NCBI GenBank assembly: GCA_963796685.1
Contig: CAWCMR010000025.1
Coordinates: 32,001-96,000, forward strand
DNA length: 64,000 bases
From: an uncultured delta proteobacterium
GTDB taxonomy: Bacteria; Myxococcota_A; Polyangia; Fen-1088
Reading direction: 5' to 3'
Shown: one piece after another, positions 1 to 31,733 of the stretch
Numbering within the stretch: position 1 is the first letter of the stretch
Layout of the letters: each line of letters begins with the position of its first letter
Position numbers and translations under genes: made by a program
The notes under the pieces: model-generated
What the model saw: the letters and a program-made list of their open reading frames with translations, nothing else
What the model was told of the DNA's origin: nothing
Databases searched by the model: none

Positions 1-342
1 GACGCTGCAAAGACCTGCGCGCGCAGCTCGTTCCGCGTCGCGTGGGCTCCACGTCCACGCGTTGGAAAGGATGGCCACCCGAACCTTCTGCCTGGCCAGG
101 CGCTCGCCGAGCACGTCCCAGTCCGGGCGCAAGGTGGGCTCGCCGCCGGTCAAGGTCACGCGCCCGCAGCGCAGCGCCACCAGCTCGTCGGCCACGCGCA
201 GGCATTCGTCGTGCGATAGCTCGTCCTCCCGAGCTCGCCCGGCCAGCGAGCCGCAATGCCGGCAGCCCATGTTGCACCGGAGGGTGATCTCCCAGCCGCA
301 GGCACGCGGCACGAACCCGATTCGTCGGAATACTTCGAGCAC
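1..342 (-). CDS. Radical SAM (probably SPASM) peptide maturase, PlpX/TIGR03913-like; N-terminal part only, runs off the window edge
   Basis: Manual translation from GTG at 342: MLEVFRRIGFVPRACGWEITLRCNMGCRHCGSLAGRAREDELSHDEC...VTLTGGEPTLRPDW...ILSNA. CxxxCxxC and GGEP motifs present; frame open to base 1; absent from the ORF track. Confidence 0.93.
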   Translation of the reverse strand, partial: MLEVFRRIGFVPRACGWEITLRCNMGCRHCGSLAGRAREDELSHDECLRVADELVALRCGRVTLTGGEPTLRPDWDVLGERLARQKVRVAILSNAWTWSPRDAERAARAGLCSV

Positions 343-345
343 CAG

Positions 346-826
346 CTACGCCTTCTCTGGAGAGGCGGAGGGCGCCGCCGCTGCGTCGGGCGGGGCCGCA
401 GCGTCCGTTTCTGCCCGCTGCATATAGTAGATGTAGACGAGGGGAGGTATCGGAACGTAGGCGTCGGCGGCCGCGTCCGGGACTTGCGTTCCGGCTTCGG
501 ATTCGCCGTCACGGGTCTGGTCGGGGGCAACATCATCTGGCGGGAGCGCGACCAGATAGGGCACGGCCATGAGCGGAAAGTCGTTCGGAGAAGTCGCATC
601 CCTGACCTCCGGCGCCGCCAGCGGAAGGTCCTCGGTCGAAACCTTCGCCACATCCGAGACCTGCGCGGCCGAATCTCCCCCCGCATCGGCGGCTTTGGCG
701 TGCAACGCATGTTGATCGCAGCCGGAAACGCTCAGCCCCAAGCCCACCGACGCGGGCACCACGACATTACGGGCCGTCTTGCGCAAGAATCGCTCGATAC
801 GCTCGCGGAGACTCCTTTTCCTTCAT
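346..826 (-). CDS. Lipoprotein-like candidate precursor of the adjacent radical SAM enzyme (1-bp frameshift near 813)
   Basis: Removing one base after ATG AAG GAA AAG (826) gives MKEKSLRERIERFLRKTARNVVVPASVGLGLSVSGC (lipobox-like), then Asp/Ala/Pro-rich spacers with Tyr cores AVPYLVALP, DAYVPIP and LVYIYYMQ; stop is 3 nt before the rSAM start. Confidence 0.7.
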
Positions 827-1151
827 GGACGGCCTCAGCAAGACATTGTATCTGGTTTCTTTTCGTTGGAGATAGCAGGAACGCCAGCTTCGAGCTCTTG
901 CCAGCCAGTCCAGTGACGAGTGGTTCTGAAACGTCTTCTCACGCCATGCGTCTATCTCGATTCAGCGCACACCGCGGTCGTGGGCTGTCCACCCCAGGAG
1001 TGCAGACGACCCCATCGCGGCTGCATTGGTGTAATTGGTGGGCCGCGGGCCACGCGGGTCGCCGCGATCATCTTCCAGCTACCGCAGAACACGAATCTTC
1101 CTTATCAATCCCCGCACCCGTGCCGTTGCGATATTGAAGGAGACCATCAAC

Positions 1152-1436
1152 ATGAGTGAGTCTGTAGGCAGCGTTACGCAAACCCAAGCGGTAGTTCGGG
1201 CTGCGGATGTCCGCGAAAAGCCCGAACCCAAGCCACAGCCAGTTCCCATCGACATGGTCCAGTTGAGTAGTGCCGCCCAGGCAGCCTTGCGCGAAGTCGT
1301 GGAAACTCCAGCCCAAACCGCCAAGGAAGCCGGCTCGGGCGATATGCTGGCCAAGCGATTGCTCGCCAAGCAGGAAGCCTCCAAGGAAGCCGCTGCCCAA
1401 GAAGAAGCCAAGAACACGAAGCACGTCGTGGCGTAG
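1152..1436 (+). CDS. Hypothetical helical protein
   Basis: ATG preceded by GAAGGAGA; Ala/Glu/Lys-rich, contains DMVQLSSAAQ. Confidence 0.75.
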   Translation: MSESVGSVTQTQAVVRAADVREKPEPKPQPVPIDMVQLSSAAQAALREVVETPAQTAKEAGSGDMLAKRLLAKQEASKEAAAQEEAKNTKHVVA

Positions 1437-1454: not shown

Positions 1455-1642
1455 GAAGCTCGACATCCTCAACGCTGCTGCGGACATCCAAGAATCTGCG
1501 AGCTCCACCGTTGAATCATCTCGAACGATTGAGCGGCTCGCTTGAAGGCTACTGGAGCGTCCGCGTCAACGACCAATGGCGGATTGTCTTTCCCTGGAAA
1601 GATGGCTCCGCGATGGACGTCAAGCTGACCGATTACCATTAG
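1455..1642 (+). pseudogene. higB: HigB (RelE/ParE-family) toxin remnant, N-terminus absent, frameshift near 1495
   Basis: KLDILNAAADIQ / LRAPPLNHLERLSGSLEGYWSVRVNDQWRIVFPWKDGSAMDVKLTDYH* matches the HigB C-terminal pattern; directly upstream of higA. Confidence 0.85.
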
Positions 1643-1652
1643 GAGAAGCGAT

Positions 1653-1991
1653 ATGATTCCAAGCAGCCGAACGCCAACCCATCCAGGCGAGATCTTGCGT
1701 GAAGAATTTCTCTCTGAGCTGGGGATTCCGCAGACCGAGTTGGCGGCCAAGCTCGGCATACCAGTCCAGCGCATCAACGAAATCGCCAACGGCAAGAGGG
1801 GCATTACTCCCGATACCGCATGGCTCTTCGCCGCTGCCTTTGGCACGACGCCGGAGTTTTGGATGAACCTGCAGGCTGTCTATGACTTGGCCCGCAACCG
1901 CCCAAGCCGAGCCGTCCCGCGACTGGCTGCGCGGCCCCCTGCCCAACGGACGTCAAAGACGCATGGCCATCGCCGCGCTTCGGCCGCATGA
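1653..1991 (+). CDS. higA: HigA-family antitoxin (XRE HTH)
   Basis: PTHPGEILREEFL...RINEIANGKRGIT...FWMNLQAVYDL; RBS AGGAG. Confidence 0.95.
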   Translation: MIPSSRTPTHPGEILREEFLSELGIPQTELAAKLGIPVQRINEIANGKRGITPDTAWLFAAAFGTTPEFWMNLQAVYDLARNRPSRAVPRLAARPPAQRTSKTHGHRRASAA

Positions 1992-2093: not shown

Positions 2094-3236
2094 TCAGTGA
2101 ACCGAGGATTGGCCGCCCGCACCGCCAACGCCCGGGACGCCGCTGCCGGTACTCCCGCCTGCCCCGCCCACGCCCCCCGTGGGGGACGGGCTGGCCGGCA
2201 CCAAGGTCCCGGCCGCGTGGCCTTCGATGGCAGCACCCCAGAGCTTTCCGGTGATGAAGTAACGAACGATCAGGCTGTCATCCTGGCGAGTGCCGTCCAG
2301 TCCCTCGACGAAGTCGTTGAGCTTCTCGGTCGAGTAGGCGTGGTAGCGGATCACGAAATGCGCCGGCGTGGCGGGCACAACGTCGTCGTAGGTAACGGTG
2401 CCCTGATCCGCGACGGTACCTGCGTTGCCCGGCGGCAGCTCGTTGGTGTTGCCGGTGAAGCTCACCGTGCGCACGAAGTTCTTGAACATGAACCACCGCA
2501 GTTGGCCACTGCCGTCGAGTGACACCGTCAGATGATCCACGGGCGGCCCGGTGAAGCCGGGGGCAGTCATCTCGACCGGGGCCGACCACAGGCTTGGCTG
2601 GCCAGCGGGCGCGACGGTGGCGGTGGGGTCGCGCTGGTAGATGGTGCCCTGGGCGCTCGACGAGAAGTGTGCGGCGTAGAGGATGCCCTGGGCACTGTAG
2701 ACGATGGCCCAGCCGTCGCCCGCGGCCGTGCCCTCGATCGACTCGACGTAATCGCACTGGCTCCCGGTGCTGACGTAGTGCGAGCTCAAGAGGAAATGGG
2801 TCGCGGTCGGCGCGGGTGAGTCGAGCACCGTGACCTGGTCGTACACAACGGTCTGGTCGGGGCTCAGATCGACCTGCCGCGAGCCGGTAAGCGGGAAGTC
2901 ATGCGGGCCGTCGCCGTAGGTTTTCGGCTGCGCGGGCATGGTCTGCCACGCCATGTAGCGCAGGCCATTGTCGGGACCGAGGCCGATGGTCAGCATGTCC
3001 TGCGGCAGGGTGGCGAAGCCGGGCGCCTGGGCATCGAGCTGTCCCCAGAAGAGGGTTTCCGTAGCGGCCGGCGCCTCGGTAAGCGAAAGCATGGCCAGCG
3101 CCTGGCCGGGCTGGCCGCCAGCCCCCGCTCCGCCGGTTCCCCCGCTGTCGGGTACGATACCCGGGTCAGCGCCCGAACCGCACGCCACCAAGGGCGAATA
3201 GCAAAACACGACGGCCAAAAAGCATTTCGCGCTCAT
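2094..3236 (-). CDS. Hypothetical lipoprotein with two tandem homologous beta-rich domains
   Basis: LVAC lipobox, Gly-rich linkers at both ends, internal duplication (APGF..P.D.LT..L...LR; D[YF]VE..[ED]GT). Confidence 0.8.
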   Translation of the reverse strand: MSAKCFLAVVFCYSPLVACGSGADPGIVPDSGGTGGAGAGGQPGQALAMLSLTEAPAATETLFWGQLDAQAPGFATLPQDMLTIGLGPDNGLRYMAWQTMPAQPKTYGDGPHDFPLTGSRQVDLSPDQTVVYDQVTVLDSPAPTATHFLLSSHYVSTGSQCDYVESIEGTAAGDGWAIVYSAQGILYAAHFSSSAQGTIYQRDPTATVAPAGQPSLWSAPVEMTAPGFTGPPVDHLTVSLDGSGQLRWFMFKNFVRTVSFTGNTNELPPGNAGTVADQGTVTYDDVVPATPAHFVIRYHAYSTEKLNDFVEGLDGTRQDDSLIVRYFITGKLWGAAIEGHAAGTLVPASPSPTGGVGGAGGSTGSGVPGVGGAGGQSSVH

Positions 3237-29345: not shown

Positions 29346-30610
29346 TTGACCCCATCTCCAACGATTTCTTCGGCAGCCACACGCGCTTCAGCGGAATCCG
29401 TCGCCGCCATCAGAGTGGTGCGTTCAAAGTTCAACAGGTCCAGCTCGGCCTGGAACAGCGACGCGAAGTCGGCACGCCCCACCCGATACGATGCGAAGGT
29501 CGCATCGAGGCTCATGCGAGCCTCCGGTATCAGTTCTTTGCGATAGGTGCGCGCCTTTTGCGCCGACCGCTTCCAGTCCGCGACGATGCCGCCGAGGTCG
29601 CCGCGCATGCGATCCAGCGCGGCAGCGCATTCTTGCGTGGTCGCCTCGGCCAGCTTCTCGTTCTGGCGCGCTTCACTTCCCCAGCGCCCATCGTAGAAAA
29701 GGGGAAGCGGCAGGGACACGCCGAGCGAGACAAAGTCCTTGCCAGGGTCCGTGCCGGCCTGCGTCCGCACGCGGTAACCGCCAAAAATCGTGATGTCGGG
29801 GTAACCCTCTCGACTCGCCCGGCGGGCCGCGCTTCGGTAGGTCTCGGCCTCGGCGGCAAACCGCTTGAACAGGGGACGGTCGCGTTCCGCTTGCTGGGCA
29901 AGTGTGGCCGCGTCCGTTGTGGGCTCTTGCACCACGGTCTGCTCGGGAGTCGGCACTTCGACGTCGATAGCCCGGTGAAGAGTGGCATTGATGGCCGCGG
30001 TCAGCGAGGCTTCGTCCCGGTCGAAGGTCTTGAGGTCATCCTTCAGCTGGTCGACCAGAACGTGGAGTCTGAGCAGCTCGTGTTGAGCACCGACGCCGGT
30101 CTCGACTTTGACGCGCACGACATCGATGAAATCGCTCACCAGTTTCACGTGCTGTCTGGTCACGTCTCGCAATTGCCGAGTCAACGCCAGTCGGTAGTAG
30201 GCGCGTCTTACGATGGCTCGTAGCTGTACCGCTTTCTCGGCCAGGCTCAGTTGCTCTTGAATCACCCGGCCTCTCGCCTCGTCTTCGCGCGCCCCGATCT
30301 TGCCAGGCCAATAGAAGGTCTGCCTCAGCATGAGCTGAATCCCGCTCATGGGGTGCTGGCCGGGCGTCGGATCGTCGATGGGCATGTTGCTGTACTCGGC
30401 CGAGAAGGTCGGGTCGAGCCAGACCCGGGCCTGGCGAACCTTCTGCTCCAAGGCTCCGACCCTGTCCCCGAGCGCCTGGAGGCTGGGGTTCACGCGAACC
30501 GCCTCGTCGCCGAGCGCGTCCGCCTGGTCCTCTTCAGCCGCGAAGCTTTGCGCCGAGAGAAGAAGGAGCGCCGTGGCGCATAGGCAGGAAAAGACATGCC
30601 ATATCCTCAT
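29342..30610 (-). CDS. TolC/CusC family outer-membrane efflux protein
   Basis: NPSL, RQTFYWPGK, YPDITI, SLPLP; operon position. Confidence 0.92.
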   Translation of the reverse strand: MRIWHVFSCLCATALLLLSAQSFAAEEDQADALGDEAVRVNPSLQALGDRVGALEQKVRQARVWLDPTFSAEYSNMPIDDPTPGQHPMSGIQLMLRQTFYWPGKIGAREDEARGRVIQEQLSLAEKAVQLRAIVRRAYYRLALTRQLRDVTRQHVKLVSDFIDVVRVKVETGVGAQHELLRLHVLVDQLKDDLKTFDRDEASLTAAINATLHRAIDVEVPTPEQTVVQEPTTDAATLAQQAERDRPLFKRFAAEAETYRSAARRASREGYPDITIFGGYRVRTQAGTDPGKDFVSLGVSLPLPLFYDGRWGSEARQNEKLAEATTQECAAALDRMRGDLGGIVADWKRSAQKARTYRKELIPEARMSLDATFASYRVGRADFASLFQAELDLLNFERTTLMAATDSAEARVAAEEIVGDGVK

Positions 30611-30664
30611 TTGCAATCCCCTTTGGCGGAACCGTAGCAGAGGGGCGTTGCCCCAGCCACGCGG

Positions 30665-31030
30665 TCACTTCACGATGATGACACCGGCGACCATGTTCAT
30701 GGCGCATGCGTACCGAATCTGTCCCGACTTGGTCGGCGTGAAGGTGACCTCGACGGGCTGGTCGAGTGGCAGCACCTTCTCGATTGCGAAGTCCTTGATG
30801 ACGAGCGTCTTGGCGCAGGTTTGGTCGGTCTTGCGCGTGACCACGAGCTTCACCGGCTGGTTGGCATTGACGTTGACCTGGGCGGGCTCGAAGCCGCCAC
30901 GTGTAACCGTGATGGCAACTGTCTGTTCGCGGGCCTGCTTGCCATCCACCGACTTGGCCAGCGCCTGCCCGCCGACAACGATCGCACCCGCGACGATGAT
31001 CGAAAGAGCACCGAGAACGCTTCTGAACAT
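30665..31030 (-). CDS. Cupredoxin-domain periplasmic protein
   Basis: GFEPAQV, TCAK, YACAMNM; RBS AGGAGG. Confidence 0.93.
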   Translation of the reverse strand: MFRSVLGALSIIVAGAIVVGGQALAKSVDGKQAREQTVAITVTRGGFEPAQVNVNANQPVKLVVTRKTDQTCAKTLVIKDFAIEKVLPLDQPVEVTFTPTKSGQIRYACAMNMVAGVIIVK

Positions 31031-31063
31031 GACGAACCTCCTGTAAGAGCGCCGGGTCATTCC

Positions 31064-31103
31064 GGCCTTCACCCCTATAGGCCGCGGGAAGGGAAGCGTG
31101 ACA
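31064..31103 (-). promoter_or_regulatory. 40-bp element (TGTCAC-N16-CCTAT..GGGGTGAAGGCC), candidate ECF promoter of the cupredoxin-cus operon
   Basis: Near-identical copy at 33956-33996 upstream of the ECF gene, same orientation. Confidence 0.8.
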
Positions 31104-31190
31104 CCCGACGAACGGTTGGGTCGTGGCGAGGCCAGCCTGCAGGGACCGGCCGCAGGCGCTGCCGCCGGGCACCCGCCATAGGACTGAGGC

Positions 31191-31733
31191 TCACTCGTGG
31201 GCGGCCCGCGAAATGAGGCGAACCTCGGTCATGGTCTCGGTCTGCACGATCAGGTAGTTGTCCATGCCTTCCAGTCGGGAATCGGTCCCTGTCCTTCTGG
31301 TCCTTCCGTAGAAGGTCGCCGAGAGCGGCACCTCGATTCCGCCCCTGACCCTGGAGGCATTCGCTCGCTCGAACTCCACCACGTAGTCGACACGTCCCGC
31401 GGCCAACAGTCTGTTGCCATCCTCCCGATTCTTCACGCGTCGAATCTGCGTCGGGCCGGACGCACAGGGAATCGACAGATCGTCGGCTGCCACGTATGCC
31501 AGCCTGTGCCCCCTGTCCACCATCTTTCCGCACGCCATCTCGTGCAAGATGGACCGAAGCCCTTGCCGGTACAGCGCCTCGTGCTTCGCCGACCAGGATG
31601 GGTCTGGCCAGTCGTCGAGCGAGCCGCAATAGTCCATCTGGATGCAATCCACGAACCGCAGCGGTGGTGCGGAGGTCGAGGCACAGGAAAGAAGACAAAG
31701 TGCGAAACAGGACAGCACAACCTTGCAAACCAT
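31191..31733 (-). CDS. Hypothetical lipoprotein
   Basis: LLSC lipobox followed by a globular sequence. Confidence 0.65.
   Translation of the reverse strand: MVCKVVLSCFALCLLSCASTSAPPLRFVDCIQMDYCGSLDDWPDPSWSAKHEALYRQGLRSILHEMACGKMVDRGHRLAYVAADDLSIPCASGPTQIRRVKNREDGNRLLAAGRVDYVVEFERANASRVRGGIEVPLSATFYGRTRRTGTDSRLEGMDNYLIVQTETMTEVRLISRAAHE

Follow-up and report, generated by a model that had tools for sequence, protein, structure and literature searches.

The DNA analysed here, referred to as the window, is a 64,000-nucleotide stretch from the genome (G000) of an uncultured delta proteobacterium of the class Polyangia, corresponding to positions 32001-96000 of its contig C25 (G000:C25:32001-96000). 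At the first edge of the window, on the minus strand, lies a pair of genes, encoding a lipoprotein-type precursor and a radical S-adenosylmethionine (SAM) enzyme with a SPASM domain, that appears to constitute a two-gene, splicease-like tyrosine maturase system for lipoproteins. The probability of that reading, including the excision of tyramine that we infer as its chemistry, is placed at about 0.5; that the two genes encode a tyrosine-directed maturase and its lipoprotein substrate is considered highly probable.

The enzyme gene had not been called, and the first-pass annotation of the window correctly located it three nucleotides behind the precursor gene: its GTG start occupies positions 342-340, its first 114 codons fill positions 1-342, and a spacer at 343-345 separates it from the TAG stop codon of the precursor at 348-346. 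The radical-SAM cluster motif falls within WEITLRCNMGCRHCGSLAG in the minus-strand open reading frame (ORF) from GTG 342, and extension into the contig, where the gene ends at G000:C25:31212, completes the enzyme to 377 amino acids and recovers the SPASM domain. The full-length protein scores 93.9 bits against PF04055 (Radical_SAM; cut-off 29.5) and 35.3 bits against PF13186 (SPASM; cut-off 21.5), and an alignment of 68 homologues shows invariant CX3CX2C (C23/C27/C30), GGE and SPASM cysteines, the latter arranged as C253-X12-G-X4-C271, C319-X2-C322-X5-C328-X3-C332 and C349. The cluster motif, the two Pfam scores and the cysteine pattern together assign the enzyme to the radical SAM superfamily and to those of its members that carry a SPASM domain.

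A finer placement was sought among the best 25 of the enzyme's 57 NCBIfam matches, with membership judged from the whole-protein score against the curated cut-off. The best score, 259 bits, is that of TIGR03913 (enzyme residues 16-358 against profile positions 16-355 of 477), followed by TIGR04103 with 240.3 bits (residues 10-352); the respective cut-offs of 591.75 and 725 are not reached. The earlier comparison of the enzyme with 'PlpX/TIGR03913' spliceases thus holds for the family as nearest match and fails for membership and for the pairing of names, since TIGR04103, equivalent to IPR026482, is the family of the founding splicease PlpX (PMC11002830). The third-best match, TIGR04133 'rSAM_w_lipo', reaches 134.9 bits against a cut-off of 425. 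Cofactor-forming families score 131.4 (NirJ2), 130.4 (AhbD), 119.5 (NirJ), 93.1 (AhbC) and 83.4 bits (PqqE), all well short of their cut-offs, and the mycofactocin maturase, for which tyrosine is likewise the target, scores 113.2 bits. The splicease-side scores are therefore about twice those of the NirJ and Ahb families and about three times that of PqqE, and, in line with the first-pass annotation, the enzyme does not group with these cofactor enzymes. Judged by its sequence, it stands next to the splicease-side families as a member of neither, and is not a cofactor enzyme of the NirJ/Ahb/PqqE type. Its database relatives, from Polyangia metagenome-assembled genomes, are named only 'radical SAM protein', and a sequence search of the PDB with the enzyme returned no splicease structure, the best matches being SkfB and PqqE at about 63 bits.

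The precursor gene, supported by homologues, occupies positions 346-786 in its main frame and comprises 146 codons from TTG 786; the ORF that translation table 11 opens at that codon encodes a product beginning MRKTARNVVVPASVGLGLSVSGC, with a lipoprotein signal and lipobox cysteine. Its displaced first codons, which read MKEKE from ATG 826, lie in another frame at 787-826, as indicated by alignment with the orthologue from genome G004, by public contigs and by the leader alignment. Segments 787-826 and 724-786 jointly encode the conserved leader helix and the signal-peptide core. An alignment of leaders from orthologues and paralogues of the genus displays invariant M1, E3, R7, F13, L14, P24, A25, G28, G30 and C36. 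The precursor has the features of a lipoprotein, that is, of a signal peptidase II substrate: a lipobox, L-S-V-S-G-C, at 718-735, whose lipidated cysteine (Cys36; codon 718-720) is invariant in the homologue alignments, and a genome that encodes both Lgt (PF01790, eight matches above cut-off) and LspA (PF01252, two). Bacterial lipoproteins are marked by a charged n-region, a hydrophobic core and a lipobox of the form [LVI][ASTVI][GAS]C; a lipobox-like pattern is found in 60 of the 63 related ORFs of the tyrosine-bearing type that are described below.

The overall layout is that of an amphipathic N-terminal helix (MKEKE-LRERIE-FLRK), a hydrophobic core with lipobox, and an Asp/Ala/Pro-rich, disordered mature part with conserved tyrosine. 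The mature part of the window's precursor is 123 amino acids long, including 29 Ala, 16 Pro and 15 Asp, and harbours five tyrosines, in the contexts AVPYLVALP (codon 556-558), DAYVPIP (457-459) and LVYIYYMQ (433-435, 427-429 and 424-426). The first of these belongs to core site 1, DFPLMAVPYLVALPPDD, at 532-582, and the other four to core site 2, DAYVPIPPLVYIYYMQ, at 418-465. The basic helical leader, the lipobox cysteine, the Asp/Ala/Pro spacers and the multi-core arrangement that had been described from the sequence alone were all found where they had been placed. Within the window's own subfamily (26 sequences with a mean column identity of 29%), D82-L83-P84 and P89-Y90 of site 1 are invariant, a level of conservation for Tyr90 that exceeds chance given the low identity of the surrounding columns; the residue that follows it is Leu, Ile, Val or Met, and never Gly. 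The PP-x-x-Y stretch of core site 2 is largely kept in the same alignment.

Across the wider family the mature parts differ by subfamily, with P-Y-L in the window's group, Gly-rich [TVL]-Y-G-[ILT]-G-G repeats in a second, and Y-M-A-Q-x-P-D repeats in a third, and a general repeat of the form x-Y-[M/G/L/S/A]-A-P-x-P-D-A emerges from the tyrosine contexts, 332 of them taken from genomes and 588 from the 150 best database representatives. The 332 genome contexts have the consensus G-G-x-V-[P/A]-[L/V/P/K/R]-Y-M-A-P-M-P-D-A-G: the residue after tyrosine is Met in 151, Gly in 45, Ser in 31, Ala in 26 and Leu in 22; the residue before it is Leu in 63, Val in 49, Pro in 47, Lys in 41 and Arg in 31; and Ala stands at +2 in 200, Pro at +5 in 187 and Asp at +6 in 105. 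In the 588 contexts the follower is Met in 185, Gly in 94, Leu in 70, Ser in 64, Ile in 53 and Ala in 52. Tyrosine alone occurs in every core type, and Cys and Trp make up only 0.1% and 0.2% of the mature regions; on that ground thioether (sacti/ranthi) and Lys-Trp chemistries were considered and dropped. The assertion that the precursor lacks the canonical YG motif is right for the copy in the window, and does not extend to the genome as a whole, in that a paralogous cassette carries the [TVL]-Y-G-[ILT]-G-G repeats; the X-Y-G core motif is accordingly absent from the window's precursor and present in paralogous and sister cassettes.

Database comparisons attach no name to this precursor. A Pfam scan of one precursor gave no family match, and an NCBIfam scan of nine gave no precursor-type or leader family, with a single generic repeat match (acidic double-disulfide repeats, in the protein of locus L116 discussed below). 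A search of the ESM Atlas returned only unnamed 'hypothetical protein' clusters, with a best score of 0.90, and the homologues are likewise named hypothetical in their source databases. The traits of type I spliceotides, a Nif11/NHLP-type leader and a separate PlpY-like protein, were looked for in the family matches and in the 3-nucleotide gap between the genes and are absent from both. A reading of the leader as a Tat signal (R-x-R...F-L-K) was dropped for want of an adjacent twin arginine at the right spacing.

The leader defines a compact family whose distribution could be delimited with some precision. Of 89 genomes from the taxonomic family, 25 match its profile, including 11 of 12 from the window's genus and 11 of 11 from a second genus, with two weak single matches elsewhere. 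A phylum-level scan gave matches at E <= 0.01 in 11 of 401 genomes; outside the source genome (400 other genomes) the best E value was 1.1e-4, and those matches were rejected as family members, since on reading they look like ordinary signal peptides. Among 1.84 billion cluster representatives, 218 proteins matched at E <= 0.001, of which 132 did so at E <= 1e-10, and the leader nearly always begins the protein, at residue 1. These sequence searches point to an undescribed precursor family of 218 cluster representatives, apparently confined to two genera of a single uncultured Polyangia family.

The association of this leader with the enzyme was quantified by fetching 84 genome matches, which correspond to 78 distinct leader-bearing ORFs (E < 1e-6). 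Of the 63 ORFs of the tyrosine type, 37 have a radical SAM gene directly downstream, 18 do not (with at least 1200 nucleotides of flank read) and 8 lie too near a contig end; none was seen behind the five Cys-rich repeat ORFs (two of them too near a contig end) or the ten short or truncated ones. Among the matches listed, the gap between precursor and first aligned enzyme residue is 7-70 nucleotides in most, with 389 nucleotides at one locus and a split match at another. The 150 best representatives comprise 123 of the tyrosine type, 11 with few tyrosines, 13 short and 3 Cys-rich. Within the genus, the orthologues and paralogues of the enzyme always have, upstream of them, a protein that shares this N-terminus, and the prediction that orthologues would retain a tyrosine-motif neighbour has therefore been borne out.

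Several members of the family depart from the paired arrangement. One leader-bearing lipoprotein of the source genome (G000:C6:19225-19335 and downstream; L033:1387-2040), with sites K-Y-M-G-P, K-Y-V-A-P-M-P-D and R-Y-M-A-Q-M-P-D, has no adjoining radical SAM gene and may be served in trans, perhaps by an enzyme whose own precursor is truncated. Such an enzyme is encoded at G000:C25:1585430-1586563 (L014), a paralogous radical SAM/SPASM protein with a C-terminal extension (open frame of 551 amino acids; its database relatives of about 545 amino acids carry TPR Pfam domains), upstream of which only the last 12 or so precursor codons remain (...LYLAQLPVPRS). At four loci of the second genus (L091, L099, L104 and L111), this leader helix and lipobox are joined to Cys-rich repeat proteins, with about 20 Cys and no adjacent radical SAM gene, in what would represent shuffling of the leader or else a second class of substrate.

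A tree of 46 enzyme sequences, computed by a quick IQ-TREE method with SH-aLRT support only and leaving out 12 truncated-duplicate loci, unites all 28 enzymes encoded behind this leader in one clade (support 100), within which the window's group forms a five-row subclade (100) beside a P-P-Y-M / P-Y-G group. Aside from the window's enzyme, the source genome encodes two full-length paralogues, 55-56% identical, and a tandem pair at about 40%; the latter, at G000:C5:388644-390718 (L016, L017 and L127), are distant radical SAM/SPASM genes 39-42% identical to the window's enzyme, with a Gly-rich putative lipoprotein upstream in which no obvious tyrosine repeat was seen. The nearest branches outside the clade consist of enzymes that other genomes of the class encode and that share 45-49% identity with the window's. 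Three of these sister-clade enzymes follow lipoproteins with a different N-terminal helix and canonical D-[A/V/I]-Y-G-[V/I/A] repeats. A fourth (L116:3602-4381, in genome G035) follows a protein built from seven copies of an acidic double-disulfide repeat (NF033662, 209 bits), with x-Y-[G/M/A]-[P/V]-[P/F] in every linker, which by its sequence would offer putative splice sites on a scaffold of folded domains; the partner of a more distant enzyme (38%) has the motif P-L-Y-G-P. It is mainly because part of this Polyangia group pairs with textbook X-Y-G substrates that splicing is preferred here over other chemistry. On TIGR04103 the four nearest sister enzymes reach 258-316 bits, and on TIGR03913 269-280 bits; it follows that the Polyangia group as a whole stands about equally far from the curated families.

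The manner in which leader and core might engage the enzyme was addressed by predicting a complex of the window's enzyme (68-row alignment) with the intact precursor of locus L040, which is 98% like the window's group (alignment of 26 supplied, 25 rows counted), together with SAM and three 4Fe-4S clusters. Three runs gave ipSAE values of 0.88, 0.88 and 0.87, with 0.00 for the best of three controls; in calibration 58 of 80 solved complexes and 2 of 110 mismatched pairs attained that mark, a rough guide only, as custom alignments and ligands were used here. The runs share at least 67% of contacts, with a partner pLDDT (per-residue model confidence) of at least 41. The modelled interface involves precursor residues 1-3, 6, 9-10, 12-14 and 17-18, which form one face of the leader helix, and residues 80-96, which surround Tyr90 of site 1. 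The helix contacts enzyme residues 244-251, 323-327 and 364-365; the core segment contacts residues 16, 18, 61-66, 88-92, 112-115, 150-156, 178-183 and 223-229, among them W17/E18, G66 and W180/Q181/Q183, which are invariant and surround the cluster and the SAM site, so that site 1 lies within the modelled barrel. All 28 members of the leader clade conserve two enzyme segments, C-R-[Y/F]-x-[D/E] (322-326) and V-K-H-x-R-x-D-L-L-x-E-x-P-T (355-372), which are different or absent in sister clades, and because helix contacts fall within them, the modelled leader site is made in part of residues that exist only with this leader. As no splicease structure has been solved, the docking score does not reflect memory of a like complex. 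In the model, then, the leader helix docks on a clade-specific enzyme surface and feeds the tyrosine core into the barrel next to the SAM cluster, a picture that agrees with the one reported for binary spliceases by Richter et al. (PMC11414181), in which the alpha-helix of the leader occupies the site of the Y protein and AlphaFold put X-Y-G in the active centre.

From these observations the following sequence of events can be proposed. The cytoplasmic radical SAM/SPASM enzyme would act on the unfolded pre-lipoprotein before export and modify its tyrosine sites, most likely by tyramine excision to yield ketoamides, with Met, Leu, Ser, Ala or Gly tolerated after the tyrosine. The protein would then be exported by Sec, lipidated on its cysteine by Lgt, and relieved by LspA of its signal peptide together with the recognition helix, such that the general lipoprotein pathway would take the place of a leader protease and an exporter dedicated to the system. 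What results would be a chain anchored by lipid and bearing one to about ten electrophilic ketoamide sites. In its most specific form, offered tentatively and as somewhat less than an even bet, the proposal is that of a helix-activated splicease that cuts at X-Y-[M/L/S/A/G], for which Gly after Tyr is dispensable, whose substrate is exported, anchored and freed of its leader by Sec, Lgt and LspA, and whose product bears up to about ten alpha-keto-beta-amino-acid sites, the varied residue before tyrosine (Leu, Val, Lys, Arg or Pro) providing warheads for several protease classes. A function as a tethered multi-site protease inhibitor is speculation by analogy, and a reasonable guess insofar as the ketoamide is the means by which spliceotides examined to date inhibit serine and cysteine proteases (PMC11626197) and variation in the residue that precedes tyrosine would fit such a role.

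A number of observations weigh against this interpretation. The enzyme falls far under the curated cut-offs of both splicease-side families, and the last 120 or so positions of the TIGR03913 profile are left unmatched by it. A search of 14 control genomes for reference spliceases found none above the TIGR04103 or TIGR03913 cut-off, and the enzyme is placed relative to spliceases by family scores. None of the five tyrosines of the window's precursor is followed by Gly (the followers being Leu, Val, Ile, Tyr and Met), and that of site 1 is preceded by Pro, for which we know of no splicing precedent. In the literature consulted, every splice event confirmed by experiment lies at X-Y-G, and RcsX did not modify even a DYG site (PMC11626197). 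A few Cys-rich repeat proteins that have no adjoining enzyme carry the leader too (5 of 78 genome ORFs and 3 of 150 representatives), and 18 precursors of the tyrosine type are orphans. The complex score is a model confidence, obtained with custom alignments and ligands unlike those of the calibration, and the local copy of the precursor gene is frameshifted.

In a rival reading the enzyme and substrate are the same but the tyrosine is not excised; it might instead be linked to a neighbouring residue through a C-C or C-O bond (as a short cyclophane or in the manner of PqqE or MftC) or be cleaved in its side chain. The scarcity of Gly after tyrosine (45 of 332 and 94 of 588 contexts) and its absence from the window's subfamily favour such a reaction, as do the missed splicease cut-offs, the presence of the tyrosine-acting mycofactocin maturase among the matches at 113 bits, and the strongly kept +2 Ala, +3 Pro and +5 Pro, which might be cross-link partners or turn shapers. 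That alternative is nevertheless judged to be on the unlikely side: the two splicease-side families score about twice as high as any other, no cyclophane-forming family occurs among the best 25 NCBIfam matches, sister-clade enzymes pair with canonical X-Y-G repeats, and, with tyrosine alone present in every core type, there is no fixed partner for a cross-link. More radically, the two genes might be mere neighbours, with the enzyme serving some other target and the helix representing a lineage-specific extension of the signal peptide, as could be argued from the Cys-rich and the 18 tyrosine-type proteins that carry the leader away from any enzyme gene and from the absence of both the precursors and the pair from every curated family. 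This is very improbable in view of the 37 of 55 judgeable tyrosine-type precursors that the enzyme follows, mostly at the short distances given above, the exact coincidence of enzyme clade and leader type in the tree, the recurrence of the helix, lipobox and tyrosine-repeat layout in sister clades with unrelated leader sequences, the preponderance of tyrosine-type proteins (123 of 150) among the best leader-bearing representatives, and a model in which the helix docks on clade-specific residues with controls at 0.00.

The frameshift in the precursor gene, where the first-pass annotation had rightly noted an indel, consists of one extra base at position 811. ATG 826 opens MKEKES... in a frame other than that of the ORF from TTG 786; the G004 orthologue, 96% identical, reads through as MKEKELRERIEQFLRKTARNVVVPAS, and in the alignment the extra base is the sole difference that changes the frame. 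All other orthologues and 24 database homologues have an uninterrupted precursor frame. When contigs from public sequencing runs were aligned to window positions 1-1200, base 811 was missing from both that cover the site (a DNA-run contig and an RNA-library contig, each about 95-96% alike), and the two 151-nucleotide contigs of run X1 did not reach it. Because the neighbouring UppP/BacA and HigB genes are broken as well, the assembly appears to be indel-prone, and the frameshift is most likely a sequencing error. Were it real, the cassette in the source genome would be a decaying pseudogene, and the precursor, translated from TTG 786 without its recognition helix, would be left unmodified; the extra base is, after all, present in the assembly and lies outside any homopolymer run, and a second cassette of the genome (C25:1585430) keeps only the last 12 or so precursor codons. 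Such decay is considered unlikely, given that UppP/BacA (in at least two frames) and HigB (positions 51-91) are disrupted too, that the radical SAM gene and the remainder of the precursor are unbroken, that the precursor gene region is 96% identical to the G004 orthologue, and that both contigs over position 811 lack the base, although they come from strains only 95-96% alike and so do not settle the matter for this one.

The genes flanking the precursor-enzyme pair are convergent or unrelated. Convergent with the radical SAM gene, just outside the window (L001:16168-17287, G000:C25 ~30168-31287), is the undecaprenyl-diphosphatase gene (BacA/UppP), which is split over at least two frames, with Pfam profile positions 40-166 in one and 153-256 in another. 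Divergent from the precursor gene, across a 325-nucleotide spacer, is a 94-residue ORF rich in Ala, Lys and Glu and without Pfam match (window 1152-1436, plus strand); this is followed by a HigB/HigA-like toxin-antitoxin pair (1511-1991, plus strand), in which the HigB ORF, of 43 residues, covers only profile positions 51-91 of 91 and looks truncated or frameshifted, and in which the 112-residue HigA-like helix-turn-helix protein is intact. At 2094-3236 (minus strand) lies a gene for a predicted lipoprotein of 380 residues, with a signal ending in ...LVACGSG, Gly-rich ends and no Pfam match. A scan of L001 16900-19300 for promoters and terminators gave 0 and 0 sites. The cassette and its precursor-enzyme junction (246-665 in X15) are spanned by contigs, 95-99% alike, from RNA libraries; because such libraries may also contain DNA, this hints only weakly that relatives transcribe the cassette. 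Among the public runs that carry window sequence, no share exceeds 0.19, values too small to indicate a habitat.

To our knowledge, ribosomal products acquire backbone beta-amino acids and ketoamide warheads by no known route other than tyramine splicing. The reaction is under development for protein labelling and for the discovery of protease inhibitors (PMC10533398, PMC11626197). If the proposal is true, then (i) the X-Y-G rule would be a habit of the clades studied so far and not a chemical limit, which would widen both the rules of genome mining and the range of splice tags; (ii) a maturase of the kind that acts on peptides made by the ribosome and modified after translation (RiPPs) would work on a full lipoprotein, with its recognition helix inside the signal peptide and with no dedicated protease or exporter; and (iii) predatory or soil myxobacteria would possess a new class of cell-envelope molecules, in the form of tethered, multi-warhead ketoamide proteins. 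The family is small and well defined, with natural variants at every motif position among its 218 cluster representatives, and these ideas are thus directly testable.

Among known systems, those of TIGR04103 (PlpX-type, nif11-class maturase 3) and TIGR03913 (GDL-motif peptide-associated maturase) match nearly the whole enzyme best, and differ from the present one in that no Nif11/NHLP leader and no PlpY are found here. DUF1842/DUF1843-type neighbours, which accompany a Chromobacterium member of TIGR03913 (PMC12114271), are likewise absent from this locus. TIGR04133 'rSAM_w_lipo' offers a further likeness as a radical SAM/SPASM family, its lipoprotein partner being read from the family's short name only and the enzyme scoring 134.9 bits against the required 425. 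Anaerobic sulfatase-maturing enzymes and QhpD are cytoplasmic radical SAM/SPASM enzymes that modify unfolded proteins before export, and in this they resemble the scheme proposed here; they differ in converting Ser or Cys to formylglycine or forming thioether links, and in having neither a repeated tyrosine core nor a lipoprotein leader helix. The enzyme scores 54 bits on TIGR03942 (NCBIfam).

A literature search that combined spliceases with lipoproteins found no paper, and a wider one on radical SAM enzymes and lipoproteins gave none that was relevant by its title, the survey of Scott et al. 2022 (Chem 8:2659) and its supplements being outside their reach; that work is reportedly a survey of splicease types, and Polyangia lipoprotein systems of the YG type may already be listed in its supplements. 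As far as the searches reach, the lipoprotein architecture, the leader built into a signal peptide, the clade-specific enzyme tail and the shift from Y-G to Y-M, Y-L, Y-S and Y-A appear to be undescribed. There are 27 characterised and 939 predicted splicease systems (PMC10533398), and published splicease mining used the frequency of YG beside radical SAM-SPASM genes (PMC10849128).

The closest parallel is provided by the binary, Y-less spliceases RhaX/RhaA, RcsX and RasX (PMC11414181, PMC11626197), in which, as here, the radical SAM/SPASM gene adjoins that of the precursor with no separate Y protein or RiPP recognition element, and in which an alpha-helix of the leader is predicted to bind the enzyme (PMC11414181), as modelled in this study. 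The tyrosine core lies on both sides in a hydrophobic, Pro-containing context, as seen in the PlpA tags ...GYGLPI and ...GYGVVFP (PMC10533398) and in xYMAPMP and PYLVALPP of the present family. Unlike the binary spliceases, the system described here has a lipoprotein as its precursor, with a leader helix that forms the n-region of a signal-peptidase-II signal; it carries up to about 11 tyrosine sites per protein, separated by low-complexity spacers; it places mostly Met after tyrosine (31-45%), with Gly in 14-16% of contexts and never in the window's subfamily; and it employs a putative splicease with a clade-specific C-terminal tail.

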